64,000 nt of DNA from Dehalococcoidia bacterium (GTDB lineage: Bacteria > Chloroflexota > Dehalococcoidia > UBA2979): positions 1,664,001 through 1,728,000 of the forward strand of contig OZ253555.1 of NCBI GenBank assembly GCA_965262725.1, written 5' to 3'. Shown in pieces: positions 3,515-50,622 of the stretch; position 1 is the first letter of the stretch; every line of letters starts with the position of its first letter. A program made the position numbers and the translations under genes. The notes under the pieces are model-generated. The model did not search any database. It worked only from the letters and a program-made list of their open reading frames with translations, and was not told the DNA's origin.

Positions 3515-4786
3515 TCACGGGGCGCTCGCGCCGGGTCCGGGGTAGCCGGCCTCGAGCATCCGCGCCGCCCGCCGGGGGCGGATGCCGGTCCACGCGAGCC
3601 GGCCGGCGCCGCGCGCGAAGAGCTCGCTCCCGGCGACCTGGTCGCCCTCCAGACCCGTGACCTCGTAGATGCTCGAGACGAGGCGGCGGCCCGACGGGTC
3701 CATGCGCAGGTGCACGACGAGCTGTATGGCCTCGGCGATCATCTCGGTGACGGCCTGCGCCGGGAGCGCCTCCTCCGCCATCAGCGCGTAGGTGCGGAGC
3801 TTGGTCAGCGCCTCGCGCGGGCCGTTGGCGTGGATCGTGCACATCGAGCCGTCGTGGCCCGAGTTCATGGCGGTGAGCATGTCGAGCGCCTCGGCGCCGC
3901 GGACCTCGCCCACCACGATCCGCGTCGGCCGCATGCGCAGCGCGTTCTTGACCAGCGAGCGGATCGAGACGCCGCCGGCGCCCTCGGCGTTGGGCTGACG
4001 CGCCTGCAGCGCGACGCAGTCCGGCAGCACCGGCTCGAGCTGGAGTTCCGCCGTCTCCTCGATGGTGACGACCCGCTCCGTCAGCCCCGAGACCGACGAC
4101 CCGAGCGCGTTCAGGCAGGTCGTCTTGCCCGAGCCGGTGCCCCCGGCGATCAGCATGTTCAGGCCGCAGCGCACCGCCGCCTCCAGGAACGCGGCGGCCT
4201 CGGGCGTGAGCGCCTCGAGTGAGACGAGGTCCTCGAGCGTGCGCGCCCGCAGCAGGAACTTGCGGATCGTGGCGTGCGTGCCGCCGGAGGCGAGCGGCGG
4301 CATCACGGCGTTGAGCCGCGAGCCGTCTGAGAGGCGGGCGTCGACCATCGGGGAGGTCTCGTCGAGCCGCCGCCCGAGCGGACCGAGCGCGCGGCGCAGC
4401 AGCGCCAGCAGCTGCTCGTCGTCCTCGAACACGACGTCGGTCAGCCGCTTGCTGCCGCCGGCTATGGCGAAGATGCGCTGCGGGCCGTTGACGATGATCT
4501 CCTCGACCTCGGGGTCATCCAGCAGGGGCTGCAGCGGCCCGAGGCCGAGGAGATCATCGAGGATGCGGCGCGCGAGCCGCTCCGGCTCGACGAGCGCCGG
4601 CTCGCCGAGCGTCGCCGAGCGCCGGTTGGCGGCAGCGATGCGCTCGGAGACGAGCCGCTCCACCTGCTCATGCTCCGCCGGCCCCGGCTGAAGCAGCGCC
4701 TCGGCGTCCAGCAGCGTCCGGAGCTCGTCGCGCACCTCGCTCCTGATCGCGCGCTCGCGCTCGCCCCCGACGGCCGGCGCCACCAT
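3515..4786 (-). CDS. cpaF: TadA/CpaF pilus assembly ATPase
   Basis: [17 protein letters not shown], Walker [31 protein letters not shown]. Confidence 0.96.
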
Positions 4787-4787
4787 C

Positions 4788-6017
4788 TCAGTACCCCTCG
4801 GCCAGACCGAACGTCAGCCAGTCGGCGCCCTGGAGCGCCGCGGCGGGCGCCGCCGCTGCCGGTGCCGCGGGGGCAAGCGCCCCTGCGAGCGCGCGGAGGT
4901 CGAGCGTCACCTTCCCGCCCGCGGCGGAGAGCGGGATCTGCCTCGACACCGCCCGGCGCGCGCTCTCGCGCTCCTCCCGCACCACGCCCAGGACCGCCAT
5001 GCCGAGCGCCCGCCCGACCTCGCCGGCGGGGTAGTGCTCCCGGCCCTCGCGGCGGTTCACGACCGCGCGGGGCAGTGCGGAGCCCGTGTCCTCCCGGATC
5101 GCGGGGAGCGCGGTGCGCGCGTTCCAGATCGAGACCAGATCGGGGCCCGTCACCAGCAGCAACTCGTCGGCCGCCCGCAGCAGCCCCGCATCAGGCGGCG
5201 CGCCGAGGTCCACCACCACCGTCTCGAAGCGCTCGCGCAGCGCCGCCAGCACGCCGCTCAGCGCCCCGCCCGCCAGCCCCGCCGCGAGCTCGGGGCGCTC
5301 CACGCCCGCGAGCACGGAGCAGCCCGGCCCCTCCTGCAGCTCGCGGTCGAGCCGCCCGCCCGCCGCCGCCAGTCCCACCAGCCCGCGCCGCGGGTCGAGA
5401 TCCAGGTAGGGCGCGACGTTGCCGCCGCGGAGGTCCGCGTCCAGCAGCACGACGTCCGTGCCGCTCTCACCCAGCAGCGCCGCCAGCGAGATCGCGATCG
5501 TCGTCTTCCCCGGCGCGCCCTTGCCGCTGGTGACGGCCACGACGCGGCCGCCGGGACGCTGCGCGCGAGGGGCCGGGACGTCCCGCTCCGCCGCGGGAGG
5601 GAGCGCGGCGGGCGGGGCGCCGGCTGAGCCGGCGGCGTCCACGGGGCCCGCAGGCCGCGCGCCGGACGCCGCGGCCTGCCGGAGGGCTGCCGCGACGATG
5701 GCGCCGGGCGATGCGGCGGGAAGCACCCGCCCGAGTCCCGCGAGCCTCGCCGCGTCGGCGGCGTCCGCCGCCAGCAGCACCACCGGCAGCCCACGCTCGC
5801 GCAGCGCGGCGAGCACGCCGTCCGAGAGCCGGTGCAGCTCCGCCGCCGCCAGCACGACATCGAAGCCGGGCTGAGAGGCCCGCTCCAGCAGGCTCGGCCC
5901 GTCCAGGCAGCGCCCGCCGATGGCGATCCCGGCCTGGGCCAGCTCCCTGCTCAGCCGCCGCTCCAGCTCGCGGCTTCCGGCCGCGAGCAGCACCCGCGGG
6001 TCGCTCTGCATCGTCAC
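4788..6017 (-). CDS. cpaE: CpaE/TadZ: receiver-like N-terminus plus MinD/ParA ATPase
   Basis: SGKGAPGKTT deviant Walker A, LLDADL; position in tad operon. Confidence 0.85.
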   Translation of the reverse strand: MTMQSDPRVLLAAGSRELERRLSRELAQAGIAIGGRCLDGPSLLERASQPGFDVVLAAAELHRLSDGVLAALRERGLPVVLLAADAADAARLAGLGRVLPAASPGAIVAAALRQAAASGARPAGPVDAAGSAGAPPAALPPAAERDVPAPRAQRPGGRVVAVTSGKGAPGKTTIAISLAALLGESGTDVVLLDADLRGGNVAPYLDLDPRRGLVGLAAAGGRLDRELQEGPGCSVLAGVERPELAAGLAGGALSGVLAALRERFETVVVDLGAPPDAGLLRAADELLLVTGPDLVSIWNARTALPAIREDTGSALPRAVVNRREGREHYPAGEVGRALGMAVLGVVREERESARRAVSRQIPLSAAGGKVTLDLRALAGALAPAAPAAAAPAAALQGADWLTFGLAEGY

Positions 6018-17866: not shown

Positions 17867-17990
17867 CTTCTGTGAGGGTCGTCTGATCCGCAAGGCCGAC
17901 GTGGCGGCCTTCTGCGCCGTTCTACCGATCGCGCCTCCCGTCCGCAGCCCTCTGTGGTGGTCGTCGGTGCCGATGCGAGTGGTGCCGCCG
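17867..17990 (-). mobile_element. Right-end remnant of an IS1111-type element
   Basis: CT core followed by GTGAGGGTCGTCTGATCCGCAAGGCCGACGTGGCGG..., aligns with 43869-43990. Confidence 0.85.
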
Positions 17991-18473: not shown

Positions 18474-20632
18474 GTGCGCCGCGAGTGTCGTCTCGGATGC
18501 GGGACGGTCGAACCTCTCCGGCCTCCTGGTACCGCTCGCTGGTCGTGGGGGATCGCTGCCCTCGCCGCTTCGCTGACGGCACAGGCGGCGACCACGCAGG
18601 GATGGATAGCGCGGCAGTGTCCACACCATCGCGACGGTGATGGTCGGACGCGCGGCTGCTCCCCAGGGTGGGAATGACAACCGATTCTGGCCCCACCTTG
18701 ATCCTCGAAACTGGGAGCGCCAGGCGAACTGGTGCGTGGGCAGGAGGTGCAAGTCCTCTGCGGCGAAGGAGCAAGCCACTCCACGCCGCTCCGCGAGCCG
18801 TGCGCGGGTCATCGCGAGGTGGCCCGCGAAGCGTCGGTAGCGGGGTATGCGGGCGGAGCTATTGAGCATCGAAAGGACAATCTGGAGCGTCGAGGCCCTC
18901 CATTTGGTCGAAGGCAACACCGGCGACGGCGGTACGGGCGAGTCGTCGTCGGGCTCCACGGTGTCGAAGAACTCAGGCACGCATACACGTCCATCACCGG
19001 GACCTGGGAGGGCTCCGTGTCGTCCCGGCGGGTCGTACGCCGGGACCGCATCGGGAAGGGAGGCAACCGTAGCCGATGATGCACGACTCGGAGCAGTCTG
19101 ATGGGGCCGTACGAGCTACGAAGGCGGCGAACAAGGGGGCGCGAGCCTCGGCGGAGTCGCTGGAGCAAAGGGCCCCAGCCAAGAGGAATCTTCGAAGCAC
19201 CGGCACGGTCCGGACGCAGAGTCGGGTGGCCGTGTCACCCGGAGCGGAGAGGATACGGCAGTTTGTGGAGAGGAAGCCGGGAGAGAAACTCACCACGCTC
19301 CTGCACCACATCACGCCGGAAGCGCTGAGGGAGGCGTACCTCGCCTTGAAGCGAGACGCGGCTCCGGGCGTGGACGGGGTGACGTGGCGGGAGTACGGGG
19401 ACGAACTGGACGAGCGATTGCTCGACCTGCACGGCCGCGTGCACCGGGGAGCGTATCGGGCGAAGCCTGTGCGGCGGGTAGAGATACCAAAGCCGGACGG
19501 GGGAGTACGGCCGCTCGGTATCGTCTCGCTGGAGGACAAGATCGTTCAGCGGGCAGTGGTGGACAATCTCCTGAACCCGGTCTTCGAGCCGGGCTTCTAC
19601 GGCTTCTCGTATGGCTTCAGGCCGGGACGCTCGGCGCATGACGCGCTGGACGCACTGGCCTACGCGGTGGACCGGCGCAAGGTCAGCTGGATTGTCGAGG
19701 TCGATATCCGGGGGTTCTTCGACAGCATCGACCGGGAGCAGCTGATGCTGTTCTTGGAGAAGCGCATCGGGGACCAGCGGGTGTTGCACCTGATACGAAA
19801 GTGGCTGAACGCCGGCGTCATAGACGCGGGACTGGAAGTCGATTTCGTACGGGGGACGCCGCAGGGAGCGCCGATATCGCCGCTGCTTGCGAACGTGTAC
19901 CTCCATAACGTGCTCGACGACTGGTTCGCGCGCGAGTGGCGACCGCGGGAGGCCCGGGGCGAGGCGTACATCGTGCGGTATGCCGATGACTTCGTCCTGG
20001 GATTCCAGTACCGCAGCGATGCGGTGCGGTTCATGGAGGCACTCCGGGAGCGGTTCGCGGCCTACGGGCTGGAGCTACACCCGGAGAAGACGCGCCTCGT
20101 GGAGTTCGGCAGGTACGCGATTGCGAACCGGCGTGAGCGCGGGGAGAGTCGGCCGGAGACGTTCGACTATCTTGGGTTTACGCACTACTGCCGGACGACG
20201 CGCAAGGGGCGTTTCGGGCTAGGGCGCAAGCCCTCAGCGAAGCGGATGCGGCGCACACTCAAGGCCATCAAGGTCGAGTTGCGGCGGCGCATGCATGACA
20301 ACCCCGTGAAGACGGGGCGGTGGCTGGGAAGCGTGCTGCGTGGATGGCTTGGCTACTACGCGGTGCCGACCAGTGTCGCGGCGCTGACACGGTTCGCTCA
20401 TTTCGTGAGGCGGCTCTGGCTGCGACGTCTCCGTCGGAGGTCGCAGCGGGACTACTTCACATGGGAGCGTCTCCACGCCCTGTGTCGCCGACTGTGGCCC
20501 CGCATCGCCATCCTGCACCCGTGGCCAGTGGAGCGATTTGCCGTCAGAACTCAAGGCGGGAGCCGGATGCGTTAGCGCGCTCGTCCGGATCCGTGCGGGG
20601 GGCGCCGGGTAACCGGCGTCCCTACCGCGAAC
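18474..20632 (+). mobile_element. Group II intron (IIB-like, no endonuclease domain)
   Basis: 5' GTGCG at 18474; domain V GAGCCGGATGCG...CGTCCGGATC and domain VI ...CCCTACCGCGAAC at 20560-20632; encloses RT ORF; ends approximate. Confidence 0.85.
19076..20575 (+). CDS. ltrA: Group II intron reverse transcriptase/maturase
   Basis: APGVDG, IPKPDGGVRPLGI, SYGFRPGRSAHDAL, GTPQG, RYADDF, FDYLGF, thumb/X domain; no HNH. Confidence 0.96.
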   Translation: MMHDSEQSDGAVRATKAANKGARASAESLEQRAPAKRNLRSTGTVRTQSRVAVSPGAERIRQFVERKPGEKLTTLLHHITPEALREAYLALKRDAAPGVDGVTWREYGDELDERLLDLHGRVHRGAYRAKPVRRVEIPKPDGGVRPLGIVSLEDKIVQRAVVDNLLNPVFEPGFYGFSYGFRPGRSAHDALDALAYAVDRRKVSWIVEVDIRGFFDSIDREQLMLFLEKRIGDQRVLHLIRKWLNAGVIDAGLEVDFVRGTPQGAPISPLLANVYLHNVLDDWFAREWRPREARGEAYIVRYADDFVLGFQYRSDAVRFMEALRERFAAYGLELHPEKTRLVEFGRYAIANRRERGESRPETFDYLGFTHYCRTTRKGRFGLGRKPSAKRMRRTLKAIKVELRRRMHDNPVKTGRWLGSVLRGWLGYYAVPTSVAALTRFAHFVRRLWLRRLRRRSQRDYFTWERLHALCRRLWPRIAILHPWPVERFAVRTQGGSRMR

Positions 20633-41841: not shown

Positions 41842-42915
41842 ATGGAATCCCGCACATCCTTCTGCCTTCCGCCGCCACGCTCGGCAATCGACCTTTTTGC
41901 CGGAGCGGGTGGTTCGGTGCAGGGCCTGTCGCAAGCAGGATTTTCCATGCTAGCTGCGGTCGAAGAAGACGCGGAAGCCGCAGCGACACTCAAGGCCAAC
42001 CACCCACAGATGAGGGTACTGAGGCGCGACGTGAGCCTAGTCTCGCCGCGAAAGCTGCGCGAGTGCCTTGGACTAGCGCGCGGTGACCTTGGACTGCTCA
42101 CCGCGTGCCCACCCTGCCAGGGGTTTTCGACGTTAGGAACGCTGGACCCATCGGACGAGCGCAACGATCTCGTCGCACAGGTATGGAAGTACGCGCGGGA
42201 GTTCCGACCAGCCGGGGTCCTCCTCGAGAACGTCCCCGGACTCTCACGCGATCCTCGTTGCGACCGCCTGTTCAGACAGCTTCGAGCTGCTGGATACGGT
42301 CTCCGGACCTGGATCGTGGACGCAGCGGACTTCGGTGTACCACAGCGACGACGCAGGCTCATCGCAATCGCCGCACGCGGCGTCCAGAAGGATGAGATGC
42401 CACTTGATCTCCGCGATGCCTTGCCCGCTGACTTCAGCCTGCGGCCGCAATTTGCGGACGAAGCAATCTCGCTCGCAGGGCGGCTGGATGGCACCGCCGA
42501 CTCGTTGCATCGCGCCCGCCAATTGTCACCGAGGGTGCTCGAGCGGATCCGCGCGATACCACGAGGGGGAAGCCACCGGGACCTACCGGACGCGCTTCGA
42601 CTCGCCTGTCATGTACGGCTCGCGGAACGGGGAAAGAAGGGTGCTACCGCACCATACGGACGGATCCGCATTGGGGAACCCGCACCGACGATCACCACGC
42701 GATGTACTACTGTTTCCTGCGGGCGCTTCGTCCACCCGACTGAAGACCGCGGCATCAGCCTGCGCGAGGCTGCGCTTTTGCAGACGTTCCCGTTCGAGTA
42801 CTCGTTCATTGGCTCGCACGGCGCAGTCGAGCGCCAGATCGGTAACGCTGTGCCTGTTCGACTCGCGGAGGCGCTAGGACTTGCAGTAAGGCGGATACTC
42901 CTGCAGGTCGGCTAA
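41842..42915 (+). CDS. dcm: C5 DNA cytosine methyltransferase
   Basis: DLFAGAGG, PPCQGFS, ENV, PQRRRR, REAALLQTFP, QIGNAVP. Confidence 0.95.
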   Translation: MESRTSFCLPPPRSAIDLFAGAGGSVQGLSQAGFSMLAAVEEDAEAAATLKANHPQMRVLRRDVSLVSPRKLRECLGLARGDLGLLTACPPCQGFSTLGTLDPSDERNDLVAQVWKYAREFRPAGVLLENVPGLSRDPRCDRLFRQLRAAGYGLRTWIVDAADFGVPQRRRRLIAIAARGVQKDEMPLDLRDALPADFSLRPQFADEAISLAGRLDGTADSLHRARQLSPRVLERIRAIPRGGSHRDLPDALRLACHVRLAERGKKGATAPYGRIRIGEPAPTITTRCTTVSCGRFVHPTEDRGISLREAALLQTFPFEYSFIGSHGAVERQIGNAVPVRLAEALGLAVRRILLQVG

Positions 42916-43019
42916 CGTTGGGCCTGGGCGGGAATTCGTGAGGACGATCGGAGAGGCTAGCATTACGCTCGCAGTCTCCCCCGACGGGAACCCAGCGTGG
43001 CTGGATCACACGACCTGAC

Positions 43020-43162
43020 GCAAGCACTGGAGAAGCGATCCGCAATCGCCCGGGACTTGACTCGGTGGGGTCGCCGCAACGCGCGGGAGTACCCGTGGCG
43101 CGAGGAATTGCCTCTGTGGCAGGCGCTGATCGCCGAAGTAATGCTGCAGCGCACGCGTGCTG
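43020..43162 (+). pseudogene. HhH-GPD (MutY/Mig-like) glycosylase N-terminal fragment
   Basis: W..RNAREYPWRE...WQALIAEVMLQRTRA, then similarity breaks off. Confidence 0.7.
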
Positions 43163-43238
43163 TCGGAGCACCATACGACGGTGAGACGCGTCGGAAGCGC
43201 TGGCTCCGCGAGCTGGCGGAGGCGAAAGGCTCGTAACG

Positions 43239-43730
43239 ATGCCGTACCATTCCGCCCTGCACGACAGCGACAACGTTGACCACGCCGAGCACGGTTGCCC
43301 GCGCGCGGCCCGCATTCTAGACCGTTGCGACTGTGAGGAGCGGCGCCCGGCGGCGCGGTGCAGTTGGTGCTACACCGGTCGTATAGAGCGCGACCCCGCC
43401 CAATTGGATCATGAACGGCACTACGCCACCCTTGCGATGGAGCCTCCTGCGTGGCGCGCGAGCGTTGTATGCGGCTCCGGCGCCGATGTGGACGTCAGCC
43501 AGGCTCTGGGGGCGTTCACCGGGAGCATTGAGGAGATCGACGGGGCGGTGCGCTTCGACCCAGCGAAGGGCCCGCTCTTCATCGAGTGCTCCAAGCACGG
43601 GATGTACCTTGGCTACTGGCGGCTTCTTCCTCGAGCCGGCGGCGCGGCCTTCAAGCCTCTCTCAATCCCTCTTCTGCTGATACCGCTCCGGGACGTGGAG
43701 CACGTCATTCCGCTGTATCAATCTCCCTGA
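43239..43730 (+). CDS. Hypothetical protein
   Basis: 163-aa ORF with Cys/His-rich N-terminus. Confidence 0.45.
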   Translation: MPYHSALHDSDNVDHAEHGCPRAARILDRCDCEERRPAARCSWCYTGRIERDPAQLDHERHYATLAMEPPAWRASVVCGSGADVDVSQALGAFTGSIEEIDGAVRFDPAKGPLFIECSKHGMYLGYWRLLPRAGGAAFKPLSIPLLLIPLRDVEHVIPLYQSP

Positions 43731-43989
43731 CCATCAAGCGAGACCAATTGACCCGACCCCCTGAAACGGGACCGCTGTTGATGAGAGTCCTTTGGCCCGC
43801 GAGGGTGGGCGGAGGAGGACATCACGGTGAAACGACGCAGGCATACGGCTGAGCAGATCGTGCGGAAGCTTCCATGAGGGTCGTCTGATCCGCAAGGCCG
43901 ACGTGGCGGTCTTCTGCGCCGTCTACCGATCGCGCCTCCCATCCGCAGCCCTGTTGTGGTTGTCGGTACAGATACGAGTGGTGTCGTCG

Positions 43990-44150
43990 TGTCGTCCCCG
44001 GGAAGTCGTGGTGGCCATGCTTCCATTCGCACTCGTCGAGGGGCCTCTCCGGGCCCGGTGCATGATGGTCAACCTGTCTCCAGGGTGTGGGCGCTGCCAT
44101 CTGAGGGCCGTCCTCGTTGGGACCAGCTTCCGTCGCAGTCGCCCGAACGT
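43990..44150 (-). ncRNA. Predicted bridge RNA (seekRNA) of the IS1111 element
   Basis: Target loop CGGAAGCTG (44132-44124) / hairpin / CCCTCAG (44107-44101) closed by a GGGCG-CTGC stem; donor loop CCATC (44068-64) / hairpin / ATGGAAG (44026-20); RNA ends approximate. Confidence 0.75.
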
Positions 44151-44219
44151 CGGCATCCCTCGCATCCTCCGGAGCCCACCGGCCGCCCGGTCGCCTCGCT
44201 CCTCGCATGCTGCCCGCTG

Positions 44220-44742
44220 CTACGCCGCCTCGGCCGCGTGCGCGTGGCGCAACGGCTCGTAGACCTCGCCGCTCTTCCAGAGTGCAAGCATCAGCACCGC
44301 CAGTCGCCTCGCGACCGCGACGACGGCACGCTTCTTCGCATTGCCGGCCCCCGACTCCGCGTACCGCAGCCCCCACCTGCGGAGGTCGCTGTCGGGGCCG
44401 AAGGGGCCCAGGATGTAGTGCGCGGCCTGGTTCAGCACCCGGCGCAGCGCCACGTCCCCTTCCTTCGTGATCCGCAGCTGGGGCTGCCGGTCACCGGAAT
44501 CGCGGCTCCGGGGCACCAGCCCGAGGTAGGGCCCCACCTCCCTGTTCTTCGGGAAGCGGTTCGGGTCCTCGATGGTGAGGACGAAGGTGAGCGAGGTGAT
44601 CGGGCCAACGCCCACGATCTGCTGGAGCACGCCGGTCTCGGGGTAGCGCTCGCACATCGCGGCGAGTTGCTTGTCGGCCTGGCGTATCTCCCCGGTCAGG
44701 TGCTCGATCTGGTGGAGCATCGGCAGCAACGCCGGGCCCAGC
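44220..44742 (-). pseudogene. IS1111 recombinase, C-terminal half
   Basis: GVGPITS, YLGLVP..RDSG (catalytic Ser), ITKEGD..LR, AVARRLA. Confidence 0.92.
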
Positions 44743-44838
44743 TGTCGATCGCCAGGGTCATTGATCCACGCGTCGCCACGGTCATTAGACCACCCGGGAC
44801 GCCGGTAGGCGGCTTGATATCAGTGAGCGTCTAGCGCG

Positions 44839-45612
44839 TCAATCACCTCCCGTCTGCGCCTCGAGCAGGGCGCGGTGCGGCGAGAGCCGCTGGCGGTAGC
44901 TATCGCCCTCGATCACGATCTGGTAGCTGGCGTTGGCGAGCCGGTCGAGGGCGCTGTTGCCGAGGATCGGGTCGTCGAAGAGACCCAGCCATTCCTCCAC
45001 GGCGCGGTTCGAGGTGATGACGAAGCTGGAGCTGCGGTGGCGCCCGATGACCAGCTCGTAGAGGTCGATGGACTGCTGCGCGCTGAGGCGATGGAGCCCG
45101 AGGTCGTCGAGGATGAGCAGGTCGGGCGCGAGGAAGCTTCGGAAGACCTTCTCGGCCGAGTGGTCGACGCGGGCCTGCGCCATCTCGCGGAAGTAGTGGT
45201 CGGCCGGGGCGAAGCGCACGGTGCGTCCGGAGCGGACGGCTGAGTAGCCGAGCGCCTGGGCCAGGAAGCTCTTGCCGACGCCGACGGGGCCGACGAGCAG
45301 GACGTGCTCGCGGCGATCGAGGAAGTGCAGCGAGAAGGCGGCGTCGAGCAGGCGGCGGTCGAGCCGGATGGCGGCCGCCCAGTCGAAGTCCTCGAGGCGG
45401 CAGAGCTGCTCGAAGCCGGCCTGGCGCAGGCGCAGCTCCAACCGCCCGTGGTCGCGGCGGCTCACCTCGTCGACGAGCAGGATCTGCAGGAAGTCCGCGT
45501 AGTCGAGGTGGTCGCGCCGCGCGAGGGCGATGCGCTCGGGCAGGGTGTCGAGCATACGGCCGAGCTTGAGGCGCTTGAGCAGCGGACGGAGGTCTGAGGT
45601 GGTGGCGGTCAT
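44839..45612 (-). CDS. istB: IS21 IstB ATPase
   Basis: GPVGVGKS, LILDDLG, ITSNR, ALDRL. Confidence 0.95.
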   Translation of the reverse strand: MTATTSDLRPLLKRLKLGRMLDTLPERIALARRDHLDYADFLQILLVDEVSRRDHGRLELRLRQAGFEQLCRLEDFDWAAAIRLDRRLLDAAFSLHFLDRREHVLLVGPVGVGKSFLAQALGYSAVRSGRTVRFAPADHYFREMAQARVDHSAEKVFRSFLAPDLLILDDLGLHRLSAQQSIDLYELVIGRHRSSSFVITSNRAVEEWLGLFDDPILGNSALDRLANASYQIVIEGDSYRQRLSPHRALLEAQTGGD

Positions 45613-47189
45613 CGTGGTGCTCCTGTCGGGGTCTGCGTGCGGGACTGTGCGAAGACGGAGCCCGAGTGGGCGAAGCGCCCCGGAGGTGGCGGCAGCTCGG
45701 GCTGGTCTGGGGTGCTCTCCTGGTCGAGGGCCTCGACGAGGATGCGCTCGAGGCGGCGCACGTCGATGAGGTCGACCTCGAGCGCGCGGCGGCAGGCGGC
45801 GTCGAGGCGGTCGGGGGAGTAGCGCTCGGCGAGCCGGAGGAGCTTGTGGCCCTGCCGCAGCTTCGCCCAGGGCAGGGAGCCCTCGAAGAGACGCTCGGCG
45901 TAGGCGCCCACGGCCTCCCCCAGCTCGGCGGCGCGGCGCTGTATCCAGTCGGGCGCCCGCCTGGTGTAGGGGGTGAGCTCGGCCGGGTAGTCGTTCGGGT
46001 CGGTGGCCCGGCCGCCCCGGCGCTGGCGCGGGTGGACCTTGATGAGCTGACCGCGGTGGTAGATGCGCACCAGCTTCGAGCCGAGCTGCACCTCGACCTT
46101 CTGGCGGGGCGGGCAGGCCGTGGACGGCACCGAGTACAGCGCGTACTGGCAGGCGATGTGGTGGTCGGGATGGACCGTGGCGGTCCGCCAGTCGGGGACC
46201 TCGTAGGGCTCGCCGTCCCACGGAGCGAGCAGAGGGAGCTCCTCCTCCCGGAAGACCTCGAGCGGCCGGCGGCGGGTCGTGCCGTGGATGCGCTGCCCCG
46301 CCACCTCGAGGCACCAGCTGCGGGCGGCGGAGCGCAGGTCGACGATGTCCCGGAAGTCGCCGCCCTTGAAGAGGCGCTCGCGCACGTAGGGGATGCTGCG
46401 CTCGACGCGCGGCTTGTCGCGGGGATGACGTACGCGCGCCGGGTCGGTGATGAAGCCTCTGTGGCGGGCGTACTCGAGGAAGCCCCGGGTGAGGCGCGGG
46501 TGGAGCGCGTCGGCCCCGGCCACGGCGGCCGGGAAGTTATCGATGACGAGGTAGCGGGGCACGCCCCCGAAGAAGGACCAGGCCTCCTCCAGGCCCTCGA
46601 TCACGGCGTCCAGCGTCTGGCTGGTGGTGGGCCACACAAAGCAGTGGCGTGAGTAGCGCCAGACGACGACCAGCGCCCACACCGCGCGCCGGCGGCCGCT
46701 CTCGGGGTCCCGGATGAAGCCGAGGCGGCCGAAGTCCATCTCCGCCACCTCGCCCGGCGGCCCGTCGTCCATGCGCACGGTCGACGGCAGCCGGTGGCGC
46801 CAGCCGCGGCGCCGGATGAAACGCCGCAGCGTGGTGTAGGAGACCTCGCAGCCTCGTCCGGCGAGGAGCTCCTGGATGCGCGTCAGTTGCAGGCGGTCGG
46901 TCTCAAGCCAGCGCTCGATCTGCTCCGCCCAGGGCGAGAGCAGCTCCTCGCTCGGCGCCTCGACCTGCCGCGGGCCGGAGAGGCTCAGCGTCGCCAGCGC
47001 GGCGAGCTGCTCCTCACTCGGCTCGGGACCGCCCGGCGTGAGGCCGGCCGCCTCGGCCGCCTCGACGTAGCGGCGCACCGTCACGCGCGATAGCCCCGTG
47101 CCGCTGGCGATGCGGCGCTGGCTGAGCCCCGCCTGCCAGCGTCGAATGATCTCCTGGATCTCCACCCCGTGTACCTCCCGGTAGGCCAT
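45609..47189 (-). CDS. istA: IS21 IstA DDE transposase
   Basis: HTH N-terminus; AEMDFG, IDN, PRDKPRVE, HGTT. Confidence 0.95.
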   Translation of the reverse strand: MAYREVHGVEIQEIIRRWQAGLSQRRIASGTGLSRVTVRRYVEAAEAAGLTPGGPEPSEEQLAALATLSLSGPRQVEAPSEELLSPWAEQIERWLETDRLQLTRIQELLAGRGCEVSYTTLRRFIRRRGWRHRLPSTVRMDDGPPGEVAEMDFGRLGFIRDPESGRRRAVWALVVVWRYSRHCFVWPTTSQTLDAVIEGLEEAWSFFGGVPRYLVIDNFPAAVAGADALHPRLTRGFLEYARHRGFITDPARVRHPRDKPRVERSIPYVRERLFKGGDFRDIVDLRSAARSWCLEVAGQRIHGTTRRRPLEVFREEELPLLAPWDGEPYEVPDWRTATVHPDHHIACQYALYSVPSTACPPRQKVEVQLGSKLVRIYHRGQLIKVHPRQRRGGRATDPNDYPAELTPYTRRAPDWIQRRAAELGEAVGAYAERLFEGSLPWAKLRQGHKLLRLAERYSPDRLDAACRRALEVDLIDVRRLERILVEALDQESTPDQPELPPPPGRFAHSGSVFAQSRTQTPTGAPR

Positions 47190-47346
47190 CGCTGCTCCCT
47201 CCGCTGGGGATGCAGGCGATGGTGGCCGTACCGGCGACCCGGGCGGGCAGGAGTCCCTGACGGGGTGGATCAATGACCCTGGCGAAGTGGATCAATGACC
47301 CTGGCGATCTGGCGATTTCGTGGTCTATAGACCTTGGCGATTCACA

Positions 47347-47920
47347 GCAGCTCCTCGGGGATGTGCCCGATGACCGCGCGGTGGAAGACCGGCGCCGTGC
47401 AGCTCGGAAGCGCCGCGCCCCACGCCTTCACCGCGCCCCGGACGTGGTTGATCAACATCGTGCGCGCCCGGACCAGCGCCTCGCGGCTGCGGAGCACCTG
47501 GAGGTCCGCCTGCGCCATGGCGCTTCGGTGCCGGATGGGGAAGAGGAGCGCCGGGTCGAATCGGCCGAGCCGTGCGAGGTGCTCGGCATCGGAGCGGTCG
47601 GTCTTGCGCTGGCTGCGCGCGATCAGCCTGACCTGCCTCGGGTTGGCGACGATGACGTCGTGCCCGAGCTCCGAGAGCATCCGGCTCAGCCACGGGGACC
47701 GCGGCCCCACCTCCATCACCACCCGCGCGCCCGTCATCCCGGCGAGCGCCCGCGTGAGCGCCGCGGTCGTGGTGCGGACTCGCTCCTCCCGCACGATCTC
47801 CCCCTCGCCACCGAGGACGCAGAGGTGGCTGTAGCGGTCGCTGACGTCGATGCCGACAGTCACGAGCTCCGCATCCCCCACCTTCCTGCTCTCTGTGACA
47901 TCTGATGTACCCTCTGCCAC
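47347..47920 (-). pseudogene. IS1111 recombinase, N-terminal DEDD half
   Basis: GIDVS, VVMEVG, KTDRSDA; joins the C-half as IPEEL(R)PALLPML; start approximate. Confidence 0.92.
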
Positions 47921-48264
47921 GGTCGGTCTCCTACCTCTCGGCTCGCCTGAGCCGTTCTCCTGGGCCACCACGTGAGCCCGTGCCTGGAGGGGAAGTATCC
48001 CCTCTGAGGAGGGGACCGACCCTCATGCCATCTGAGGGAGGCGGAGCGGCTGCTCGGCGAAGGGCAGACGATCGCCGAGGCGGCGAAGCAGGTCGAGATC
48101 TCGGAGCAGACCTACCACCGCTGGCGCAACCAGTACGGCGGGATGAAGGCCGACGACGCCAGGCGGCTGCGCGAGCTGGAGCGCGAGAACGCGCGTCTGA
48201 AGCGGATCGTCGCCGACAAGGAACTCGAGATCGACGCGCTCAAGGAGATCGCGCGGGGAAATTG

Positions 48265-49098
48265 GTAAGCCCGTCGCGCCGGCGTGAGGCGGTCTGCATG
48301 TTGCAGGACCGCCTCGAGTTGTCGGAACGACGGGCATGCCGGGTCACCGGCCAGCACCGCTCCACGCAGCGCCGCCTCCTGGCACGCGGCCGCGGCGACG
48401 ACGCGCTGCGGACGGAGTTGCACGCCTTCTCGCGTGGCCATTCCCGCTGGGGGTACCGCCGGGCCTGGGCGACCTTGTGCGAGGAGGGCTGGGGTGTGAA
48501 TCGCAAGCGGGTGCAACGCGTCCCGGTGAAACGACGCAAGCGTCAGCGCCTGGGGGACTCGGCAGTGCCCGCCGTGCGGCTGCGGGCTGAGCGGCCGAAC
48601 CACGTCTGGGCGCTGGACTTCCAGTTCGACCAGACCGCGGACGGGCGGGTCCTGAAGCTGCTCAACATCGTTGACGAGCACACACGGGAGGCGCTGGCGA
48701 TCGTGGCCGCCAGGAGCATCACCGCCGACGCTACCGCCGCCACGCTCGACCGGATCGTCGCCGGGCGCGGAACGGCGCCTGGGTACATCCGGTGTGACAA
48801 CGGTCCCGAGCTCACGGCCAACGCCCTGCGCGACTGGTGCCGGTTCTCCGGCACGGGCAGCAGCTACATCGAGCCCGGTGCGCCGTGGGAGAACCCGTAC
48901 GTGGAGTCGTTCAACGGCCGGTTGCGCGATGAGTTCCTGGCCGTCGAGCAGTTCGACAGCTTGCTCGAGGCGCAGGTGCTGATCGAGGACTGGCGGATCG
49001 AGTACAACACGAAGCGCCCGCACAGCAGCCTCGGCTGGCTCGCCCCGGCTGCCTACGCCGAGCAACGCAGGGCGGAACAACTGGTTGGACTCTCATAA
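48265..49098 (+). CDS. IS3 OrfB DDE transposase (likely short in-frame deletion near NRKRVQR)
   Basis: WGYRR, WALDF, DNGPE, PWENPYVESFN, YN..RPHSSL; -1 overlap with orfA. Confidence 0.9.
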   Translation, partial: VSPSRRREAVCMLQDRLELSERRACRVTGQHRSTQRRLLARGRGDDALRTELHAFSRGHSRWGYRRAWATLCEEGWGVNRKRVQRVPVKRRKRQRLGDSAVPAVRLRAERPNHVWALDFQFDQTADGRVLKLLNIVDEHTREALAIVAARSITADATAATLDRIVAGRGTAPGYIRCDNGPELTANALRDWCRFSGTGSSYIEPGAPWENPYVESFNGRLRDEFLAVEQFDSLLEAQVLIEDWRIEYNTKRPHSSLGWLAPAAYAEQRRAEQLVGLS

Positions 49099-49402
49099 GC
49101 GGTGGTCTCGCGAAGGGGGTCCGGTCACACCCGCAGCCCGCGCCGACTCGAACTCCTCCAGCGCCTGCCTCCGCTGCTCGATACGCAGGACCGCGTCGCG
49201 AGCGCGCTGCTCCTGCTCCGCTGCGCTCAGCCCGCGTCCGTCGCGGTGTCGATACGAGCGAGCGGGATAGCTGGTGGTGCACCGGGACCAGGATGTGCAA
49301 GCGGGCGCGGCAACGAAGAAGTCGGCCCGACCAGCGGGGCCGTCGGCGGTCAGGGCGTGCGGTATCCTGCTGCGTCGGATCGCATCGAGCGAAGGAGAAC
49401 CT

Positions 49403-49654
49403 GTGCCGAAGTTCGAGAAGTTGGACCCGAAGGATGTCGCCGTCGGCCGCAGCCGGGCGGCCGCTGCCGCACGCGAGCCTTACATCCAGGCCCTGAAGGC
49501 GGGAGCCGCCGGGCGCATCGAGCTTGAGCGTGGCGAGACGCAGGCGGTCGTGAAGCGGCGCCTCCAGGAGGCGGCCCGCGAGAGCGGTATCAAGCTCCGC
49601 TCCTCGTGCGAGAGCCCGCGCTCGCTGGTGTGGAAGCGGACCGGGCAGGTGTGA
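49403..49654 (+). CDS. Small basic hypothetical protein, paralog of 24719-24976
   Basis: RBS AAGGAG; MPKFEKLDPKDVAVGRSRA...VKRRLQEAAR..LVWKR. Confidence 0.75.
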   Translation: MPKFEKLDPKDVAVGRSRAAAAAREPYIQALKAGAAGRIELERGETQAVVKRRLQEAARESGIKLRSSCESPRSLVWKRTGQV

Positions 49655-50622
49655 CGGTGGATGTGGGTGTCTGGAGCGTCGAGGACGACGTCCCGCGGCG
49701 CGTGAGTCGCGGGGGCGTCGGACTGGAGAGGCGGCTCGAAGACTGGATCGCTCGCGACGCGAGCCTGCTGGCCGACGGCCTCACGATCGTCGGTCGCCAG
49801 GTGCATCTCGACGGCGGCTTTCTCGACCTGCTCGCCATCGACTGGCGAGACCGCTGGGTGGTCATCGAACTGAAGCGCGGGCGGCTGTACCGGGACGCGC
49901 TGGCTCAAGCCCTCGACTACGCATCCTCGATCGCGCGGATCGGAGCCGCCGAGCTTGAGGAACTGCTTCGTCCCGGCATCGAAGGGCTGGGCGACGCCGA
50001 GGAGCTGGCCCGGGCGGTGCGGCGGCAACTCGACGGCGAAGACGGCGACCGCGAGGTGGCGGTCCTGCTCGCCGGCGTCGGCGTGGACGCAGGCCTGCAG
50101 CGCATCGTGGCTCACCTCGGTGGCTACGGCGTGCCGATCACGATCGTGAACTTCGAGGTGTTCGAGCCTGGCGAGGGCTCCCGGCTGCTGATGCGCGAGG
50201 TCACCGAGGAGGAGTCCCGTCCTCCGCGCCGGGAGGCGAGACGCCACACCGTCGAGGCGATCCGGCACCGCGCCCGGGAGGAGGGCGTCGGCGTGCCGTT
50301 CGACCGCTTCCTCGACATGGCGAAGGAGGCCGGGCTCGTGGTTCGGCCGTACTCGCGTGCCGTCATGATCGCGCCGCCGGCCAATCGCAGCCGCTTCCTG
50401 ATGTACGCGCGACCCGATTCGAGCCGCATCGTTCTGAGTGCGGGGCCGGCTCAGTTCGCGGAGTTCTTCCCGCCCCTGACCGAAGAGGAAGCGACCACCG
50501 CGATTGGTCCGTATGAGCGCGGAGGCGCTCCGCATTTGGCCGGTGCCGAGCTGGAGGCGCGCCTCGACCAGCTCGAGACATTCCTGCGGTCGTTGCCCCG
50601 TGCGGAGGACGATGTCGGGTAG
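49651..50622 (+). CDS. NucS/DUF91-like PD-(D/E)XK endonuclease
   Basis: LERRLEDWI, GRQV, LDLLAID, VIELKRG, AQALDYA. Confidence 0.82.
   Translation: MTVDVGVWSVEDDVPRRVSRGGVGLERRLEDWIARDASLLADGLTIVGRQVHLDGGFLDLLAIDWRDRWVVIELKRGRLYRDALAQALDYASSIARIGAAELEELLRPGIEGLGDAEELARAVRRQLDGEDGDREVAVLLAGVGVDAGLQRIVAHLGGYGVPITIVNFEVFEPGEGSRLLMREVTEEESRPPRREARRHTVEAIRHRAREEGVGVPFDRFLDMAKEAGLVVRPYSRAVMIAPPANRSRFLMYARPDSSRIVLSAGPAQFAEFFPPLTEEEATTAIGPYERGGAPHLAGAELEARLDQLETFLRSLPRAEDDVG

Follow-up and report, generated by a model that had tools for sequence, protein, structure and literature searches.

Insertion sequences (IS) of the IS110 family, including those of the IS1111 group, carry a DEDD recombinase that is directed by a guide RNA, termed seekRNA or bridge RNA, and this mechanism was published in 2024. 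The hallmarks of the IS1111 group are terminal extensions of 7 and 3 bases (PMC11187229, section 4) and a long non-coding region downstream of the gene (section 6), and in its seekRNAs the match to the top strand lies 5' of the match to the bottom strand (section 9). ISEc21, which is of the IS110 type, has its target in IS3-family transposase genes (PMC11187229, section 12), and an element aimed at coding codons of IS3 is thus already known. For IS621, the bridge RNA reports (PMC11208160; PMC11208158) describe separate recognition of target and donor, each by two arms which match opposite strands and include a CT core, with the target arms in the order LTG-RTG and the core inside them (PMC11208160, section 7); PMC11208160 also places the donor arms of many IS1111 members in a multiloop (section 12). 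The element described here occupies positions 43871-48033 on the minus strand of a 64,000-nucleotide stretch of DNA (the window), which corresponds to positions 1664001-1728000 of the 3.67-Mb single-contig genome (G000:C1) of a Dehalococcoidia bacterium. It is very probably an IS1111-group RNA-guided element which carries its guide in the downstream non-coding end and sits at the target of that same guide, within orfA of an IS3-family element.

Compared with the IS1111 elements ISEc11, ISKpn4, ISPst6 and ISPa11 (PMC11187229), the window element shares the DEDD recombinase, the 7- and 3-base extensions, the long downstream end and the order of the arms, but its host is an uncultured member of the Dehalococcoidia, its target is IS3 orfA and its RNA scaffold belongs to no Rfam family at threshold. 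Like ISEc21 it is an RNA-guided element of the IS110 family that naturally targets conserved coding sequence of IS3-family elements. It differs from ISEc21 in being of the IS1111 type, with a downstream guide aimed at codons 12-17 of orfA, whilst a relative, L018, is aimed at the 3' end of orfB. With IS621 the window element has in common the separate recognition of target and donor by two arms on opposite strands with the CT core included; the guide, however, is encoded at the opposite end, its target arms come in the reverse order and the donor arms are held in a multiloop rather than in a simple internal loop.

An earlier note on this DNA, made from its letters alone, had described a nest of three layers, in which an IS3 element holds an IS1111-type element and this in turn an IS21, and each layer matches the models of its family. 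The outermost layer is an IS3-family element on the plus strand (43749-49127), with terminal inverted repeats at 43749 and 49127. Its orfB (48298-49095) scores 204.5 bits on the NCBIfam model 'IS3 family transposase' (NF033516, cut-off 160) and also matches Pfam rve, rve_3 and HTH_21, and the inverted repeats and orfA/orfB layout are those of the family, whereas the 78 amino acids that remain of orfA have no match in Pfam or NCBIfam. On the sequence, orfA starts near 43827, is cut after GTG CGG AAG CT (43860-43870) and picks up with G AGG GAG at 48034. Excision in silico of the 4163 bp from 43871 to 48033 rejoins it as GTG CGG AAG CT followed directly by G AGG GAG, and the CT at 43869-43870 is repeated at 48032-48033, as had been claimed.

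The IS1111-type element, antisense to orfA, is 4163 bp long with the IS21 and about 1554 bp without it, its last two bases (48032-48033) being CT. Its ends agree with those of a sister element, present elsewhere in the same genome as four intact 1554-bp copies with 92-96% identity to it. The recombinase gene lies in two pieces on the minus strand: the N-terminal half (47342-47971), with the DEDD or RuvC-like domain, reaches a stop inside the IS21 and matches Pfam DEDD_Tnp_IS110 (PF01548, E 1.2e-20), and the C-terminal half (44220-44729) matches Transposase_20 (PF02371, E 6.3e-19). On the NCBIfam model 'IS110 family RNA-guided transposase' (NF033542), which has 343 positions, the halves cover 1-156 and 189-342 respectively; the intact sister recombinase reaches 216.6 bits on it, the cut-off being 140. 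The DEDD and Tnp domains, and a CT core found at each junction of the window copy and of the four sisters, place the element in the IS110 family. Two further features are those of the IS1111 group. Firstly, the sub-terminal inverted repeats of 10-11 bp lie inside extensions of unequal length: the left repeat (48017-48026, minus strand; ATGAGGGTCG in the orientation of the IS) is 7 bases from the end including the core, with the extension AGATGGC, and the right repeat (43874-43883, minus strand; CGACCCTCAT in the same orientation) is 3 bases from the end, with the extension GGA. Secondly, 349 nt of non-coding sequence lie downstream of the gene (43871-44219) as against about 62 nt upstream (47972-48033). 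Ends were parsed by anchoring on motifs; a finder of exact sub-terminal repeats was dropped, its hits being mostly due to chance.

The innermost layer is an IS21-family element of 2604 bp (44743-47346, minus strand), with istA at 45609-47273 (216 bits on NF033546, cut-off 160) and istB at 44839-45612 (IstB_IS21, E 5.3e-53). Repeated end motifs are present, and the element is flanked by CAGC at 44739-44742 and 47348-47351, or by an imperfect 5-bp repeat. A copy identical over all 2604 bp lies at genome positions 524387-526990, and 15 alignments of more than 2.5 kb, the window copy included, are found in the genome. The frames beside the IS21 read ...IPEEL and GPALLPML..., and they fit the intact sister (IPEELGPALLPVL), so that taking out the IS21 together with one flanking repeat restores the recombinase gene. 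The earlier statement that an intact IS21 splits a recombinase whose frame can be restored therefore holds, except that the residue given in brackets as R should be G, going by the sister; and the element of about 1.55 kb can be rebuilt in silico as proposed, its frame returning once the IS21 is removed. Since the IS21 landed in the recombinase gene, the window copy is dead.

The guide was sought in the 349-nt downstream end, which on the minus strand reads ...GGGCGACTGCG-A-CGGAAGCTG-GTCC CAACGA GGAC-GG-CCCTCAG-ATGG-CAGCGCCC... and contains a predicted seekRNA or bridge RNA core at 44014-44158, made up according to alignments, RNAalifold and a covariance model (R1) of an outer stem, a target loop, a small hairpin and a donor multiloop. 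The 5' target arm, CGGAAGCTG (44124-44132), equals the plus strand of the IS3 site, that is CGGAAGCT, which runs through the CT core, with one further G; it would pair with the top strand in the orientation of the IS. The 3' target arm, CCCTCAG (44101-44107), is the reverse complement of CTGAGGG at the site. Between the two stands the distal hairpin GTCC-CAACGA-GGAC (44110-44123). In element orientation the 5' arm is thus complementary to the top strand right of the core and the 3' arm to the bottom strand left of it, and both arms include the two-base core (CT on the plus strand of the window). The fit amounts to 8 and 7 contiguous bases, cores included, or to 11 of the 13 non-core positions in a fixed register, and it falls on codons 12-17 of orfA. 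The donor arms, which flank a second stem-loop (44028-44062), match the element's own ends in a corresponding way: the 5' arm CCATC(A) (44063-44068) the left end, GCCATCT on the plus strand at 48027-48033, and the 3' arm ATGGAAG (44020-44026) the right end plus core, CTTCCAT on the plus strand at 43869-43875. All these sequences stand where the earlier note had placed them, both the arms around a GTCC-N6-GGAC hairpin that match the two strands of this exact target and the second pair that matches the element's circle junction, the 5' donor arm doing so over only 5 bases.

In an alignment of 10 relatives the scaffold is invariant except for two hypervariable cassettes, which fall at the positions of the arms. 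The distal GTCC/GGAC hairpin is present in all 10, with each of its four pairs kept in at least 9, and in the predicted RNA a conserved stem, GGGCG-CTGC/GCAG-CGCCC, closes the internal loop of the target. The RNAalifold consensus has 31 pairs and comprises the outer stem, the target-loop stem with its distal hairpin, a CCTG-GNRA-CAGG hairpin and the donor stem-loop, the donor arms lying in a multiloop. A fold of the single sequence was set aside in favour of this comparative structure, as it let the target arms pair together and did not surpass shuffled sequences.

The strongest support for a guide function comes from the sister element. Its four copies are flanked by ...CGCGCCCCCT on one side and TGTTCGCC... 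on the other, the immediate flanks being CCCCCT before and TGTTC after the element in every copy. Its target arms, (A)CCCCCT and GAACAAG in place of the window's CGGAAGCT and CCCTCAG, are exactly its own two flanks, GAACAAG being the reverse complement of the flank CTTGTTC. The ends of the two elements differ at one mirrored position (TCT/GTC in the sister as against TCC/GCC in the window, within GTCAT/TCTAT and GCCAT/TCCAT), and the donor arms change at the matching base, TCATC/ATAGAAG in the sister, whose end is GTCATCT, as against CCATC/ATGGAAG in the window. Thus all four arms change along with target and ends, which is the covariation that the earlier note had asked to be looked for. Between the two elements the guide differs in 12 of its 13 columns and the rest of the non-coding end in 27 of 330 (Fisher p = 1e-11).

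The sister's target is domain IV of a multi-copy group II intron, of which the genome holds at least 14 copies. Its site is empty in 10 intron copies and occupied in 4, and the junctions are identical in different intron copies. The four occupied introns do not all stem from one copied event, since the intron that holds copy c2 has clearly diverged. One intron copy lies in the window itself, with a match to the Rfam D1-D4 model (RF02005, 169 bits) at 18750-18973 and an open reading frame (ORF) for the intron protein at 19076-20572 (354 bits on a group II reverse transcriptase/maturase model); its empty sister site, at 19126-19142, precedes the conserved part of the protein, whose start is residue 82 in the longest ORF. 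The precise ends of the sister are borne out by contigs in two public sequencing runs, which join across it with a skip of 1554 bp. L026, considered as a further sister copy in the intron of another genome, was left uncounted: the element is rearranged, its arms do not fit the flank and its guide is interrupted.

Relatives were collected by a protein-based scan, which gave 23 loci, mostly in metagenome-assembled genomes (MAGs) of other Dehalococcoidia, and with R1, whose 99 matches are spread over 9 of 99 genomes from the family and include 5 in the genome of the window. The R1 matches that were read number 41, namely 30 and a further 6 loci from other genomes and the 5 copies in this one. A contiguous match of at least 12 bases over both arms was found in 12 of 25 unique combinations of element and flank, compared with 2 of 574 non-cognate pairs, and the median contiguous match was 11 bases for cognate and 4 for non-cognate pairs; this scoring lets the arms shift, in cognate and control pairs alike. 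The covariation of guide and target proposed for homologous elements is thus present across the relatives. A count in a fixed register gave a cognate mean of 8.4 of 13 positions against 3.96 over 196 non-cognate pairs, but was superseded, as it under-counted L015 and L017, which fit at a shift of one base; L015/L065, L017 and L079 as a group fit with such a shift or with a mismatch in the core. At the donor side, the G or A state of the 3' arm agrees with the right end in all 18 elements tabulated.

The evidence taken together upholds the identification of an IS110/IS1111-type element with a bridge or seek RNA that specifies both site and ends, as sister and relatives covary and the arms stand in the published order. 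In the mechanism we propose, a guide RNA from the 349-nt downstream end would direct the DEDD recombinase, its 5' target arm pairing with the top strand right of the core and its 3' arm with the bottom strand left of it, and so lead the element to codons 12-17 of IS3 orfA. The donor arms, in their multiloop, would read the junction at which the right and left ends of the element meet in the excised circle. ISEc11, ISKpn4 and IS621 serve as models for the further steps to be expected here: the RNA would be transcribed and bound by the recombinase, a circular intermediate would form, and recombination would take place at the core. The IS21 arrived later, in the recombinase gene. The guide is in addition reminiscent of the handshake guide of IS621: ATGG follows CCCTCAG in the window RNA and the left end reads AG-ATGG, although the sister's ATGG does not follow its own end, ATGA.

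A number of results weigh against this reading of the locus. The arms of L012, L021, L024, L067, L071 and L092 do not fit their flanks, and 9 of the 25 combinations of element and flank share 8 contiguous bases or fewer. The 5' donor arm is 5 bases long, the second core base is mismatched in it, and the relative L011 breaks the covariation. The stems are near-invariant, with a compensatory change in 2 of the 31 consensus pairs, so that the structure is weakly tested by covariation, and no Rfam family reaches its gathering score within 43000-50000; a single-sequence fold, as suggested earlier for 43871-44219, does not stand out from shuffles (z = -0.08). Among the 24 public runs listed, 20 hold part of the sister, 9 hold at least half of its sequence words and 2 are on record as RNA (share 0.05). 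Among contigs from 4 of the runs, those from RNA libraries cover only the last 210 or so bases of a relative and its flank, a stretch which leaves the recombinase gene and the target loop outside and which might equally derive from DNA or from read-through. Finally, the window's variant of the guide is represented by a single copy at a single site, hence by one insertion event, and its exact site recurs neither in its own genome nor in the related ones. The IS3 site is conserved as protein (IVRKLRE), and 15 of 99 genomes from the family hold close DNA relatives of it (36 hits, with 1 in a backwards control), but in none of the 36 are the 13 guided bases exact, the commonest variant having CGG in place of the window's AGG. 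The proposal that the guide targets the conserved 5' region of orfA therefore holds only in part, for related sites and not for the exact bases. A genome search also returned no second full copy of the host IS3, and the window variant is thus a lone dead copy, with no further exact site in its own genome to move to.

What the lineage as a whole aims at was assessed by sorting the guides into 16 classes and naming the gene at the best-fitting site of each by Pfam and NCBIfam. Besides the IS3 orfA of the window and the group II intron of the sister, the targets comprise an ISNCY transposase at three different sites (L011, L017 and L078), IS21 istA in its C-terminal part (L013) or N-terminal part (L066/L082), the stretch 1-151 nt upstream of another IS110-family recombinase gene (L016, L086 and L093), the 3' end of orfB in an IS3 of the window's kind (L018) and an IS1380 transposase (L019). 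In 12 of the 16 classes, then, the best site lies in a transposase gene or at most 151 nt upstream of one, or in a group II intron. The site of the L087 class is 110 nt from an IS21 istA. Three classes, L015, X and Y, have no mobile-element target recognisable by Pfam or NCBIfam; the L015 site adjoins an 874-residue P-loop ORF, and the sites of X and Y, both from genome G080, have no more than a short motif in common. Of the window's own genome, 19% consists of repeats (300 bp or longer, identity 85% or higher), and with this as the baseline the binomial probability of 12 in 16 is about 2e-6, or 0.005 with a baseline of 40%. IS4321/IS5075 and an IS1111-attC group are reportedly fixed on the terminal repeats of Tn21-family transposons and on integron attC sites; the lineage here, in contrast to these terminal repeats and recombination sites, mostly goes within or upstream of transposase genes and into a group II intron. 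The part of the literature consulted yielded no IS1111 element aimed at group II introns and no preference for mobile elements across a lineage.

It is probable, if by a modest measure, that the lineage is specialised on other mobile elements; the grading is modest because the guide classes are related rather than independent, a single genome supplies the baseline and multi-copy targets are the more readily detected. The broader picture, in which this Dehalococcoidia IS1111 lineage is a hyperparasite of mobile DNA with fast turnover of guides, at least a dozen re-aimings and guiding in trans, and is itself hit by an IS110-family element, is held to be slightly better than an even chance. The earlier note's view of an IS that parasitises other IS accordingly finds support at the level of the lineage, through the 12 of 16 classes, and lesser support from the window copy alone.

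The principal competing explanation, possible though rather doubtful, is that the preference is one of ascertainment, in that guides which match multi-copy sequences make more copies and repeat-rich long-read MAGs inflate the count. The repeat content of the genome lends it weight, as does the fact that the two classes richest in copies, those of G080, aim at a short dispersed motif and not at a mobile element; moreover, 36 of the 94 matches outside the window's genome were read, and the classes are related. The proportion of 12 in 16 nonetheless exceeds either baseline, several of the targets are low-copy in their genome, the window's IS3 among them, and six families are struck, namely IS3, IS21, IS110, IS1380, ISNCY and the group II intron.

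An improbable alternative holds that the insertion into IS3 orfA was an off-target or near-cognate accident of a guide which evolved for some other, perhaps host, site. Such an accident would suit a single insertion event and a 13-base site that is found exactly nowhere else, and near-cognate host sites do occur, with L012 and L014 sharing guides with L013, and L070 with L078. However, the 15 contiguous bases over the two arms rank among the best fits in the set, no better site exists in the genome, and 12 of the 16 guide classes have their best fit in or just upstream of a mobile-element gene. That arms and flanks match merely by copying or chance, the site being chosen by the protein, is hardly credible: the weak covariation of the structure (2 of 31 pairs) would allow it, but the arms lie 150-260 nt inside the element in an invariant scaffold, they change pairwise with the flanks in at least 13 classes, and guide function has been shown at the bench for IS1111 and IS110 members of the same layout (PMC11187229; PMC11208160).

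With the guided insertion thus preferred, the window element and its sister represent a case of natural reprogramming, in which two elements of 92-96% identity in one genome have had their four arms rewritten for different targets and ends. The pair supports, independently of earlier work, the rules of programmability for the less-studied IS1111 layout, and it shows which positions are changed in nature. In about 100 guide RNAs a single invariant scaffold is combined with 16 or more sets of arms, which provides material on scaffold, arm length and tolerance of mismatches for an orthologue of the DNA insertion tools. A picture of conflict also emerges, of RNA-guided IS which mostly land in other IS and in introns, disable them, spare host genes and seem to guide one another. 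Should a dedicated mechanism lie behind the fast, paired rewriting of the arms, and not selection acting on point mutations, this would be new biology.

Several observations on the relatives bear on how such guides behave. In three cases (L012/L073, L014/L081 and L070), elements that share their arms with copies inside IS21 or ISNCY genes are found at near-cognate sites in host-like genes, these being a large repeat protein, an ORF that resembles vWA domains (judged by eye from its translation only) and an InlB B-repeat ORF (Pfam); off-target insertion therefore happens in nature. In genome G080, where L071, L085 and L092 were compared with L094-L099, six copies carry the guide of class X, with the arms GCGACCTGCT and GGCAGAG. 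Two of these, L098 and L099, are at fitting sites and L079 is at a near-cognate one, while L071, L085 and L092 occupy sites of TTTTCAG followed by CAGCCTGCT, which fit the arms of the 26-copy class Y. The pattern points to relatives in one genome guiding each other in trans, or else to an exchange of non-coding ends.

At 3941-5029 (minus strand) of L026 another IS110-family element, with a recombinase of 362 amino acids that matches Pfam DEDD_Tnp_IS110 and Transposase_20, lies inside the guide RNA gene. The same junction of an IS110 element within the guide recurs in L026, L080 and L088, directly after GAGTGCGG at the 3' donor arm, and this element appears to target the conserved scaffold of the IS1111 lineage. 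Right ends are in some loci repeated: L017 has three tandem copies about 60 bp apart (4438-4576), L019 two tandem copies (4495-4569), and L018 five right ends with two whole guide regions (4499-5249). Local duplications of IS110 loci similar to these repeats are described in a preprint (10.64898/2026.08.14.744561).

Within the window's genome, which is unusually rich in mobile DNA for its size, with its 19% of repeats and its copies of IS21 and the intron, a partial second copy of the host IS3 lies outside the window at C1:2413941-2414213 and lacks positions 33-124. The left edge of this deletion adjoins ATGAGAGTC, which resembles the IS1111 sub-terminal repeat, and the right edge is at most 2 bases from the IS1111 insertion point; the deletion may be the scar of an aberrant excision through a pseudo-end. 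A fragment of 112 bp at 17873-17984, 91% identical to the IS1111 right end, lies some 800 bp upstream of the window's intron (18750-20572). The left end of the window element carries a hairpin, CCCCTC-TGAG-GAGGGG followed by GAC (47995-48043, plus strand), which is kept in the left ends of the relatives; the Rfam family Whalefall-1 was considered for it, with a sub-threshold score of 25.9 against 37 bits, and was taken as chance or as unexplained. Upstream of the nest, an ORF of 357 amino acids (41842-42915, plus strand) has the motifs FAGAGG, ENV and QRR, which we take to be those of cytosine-5 DNA methyltransferases.

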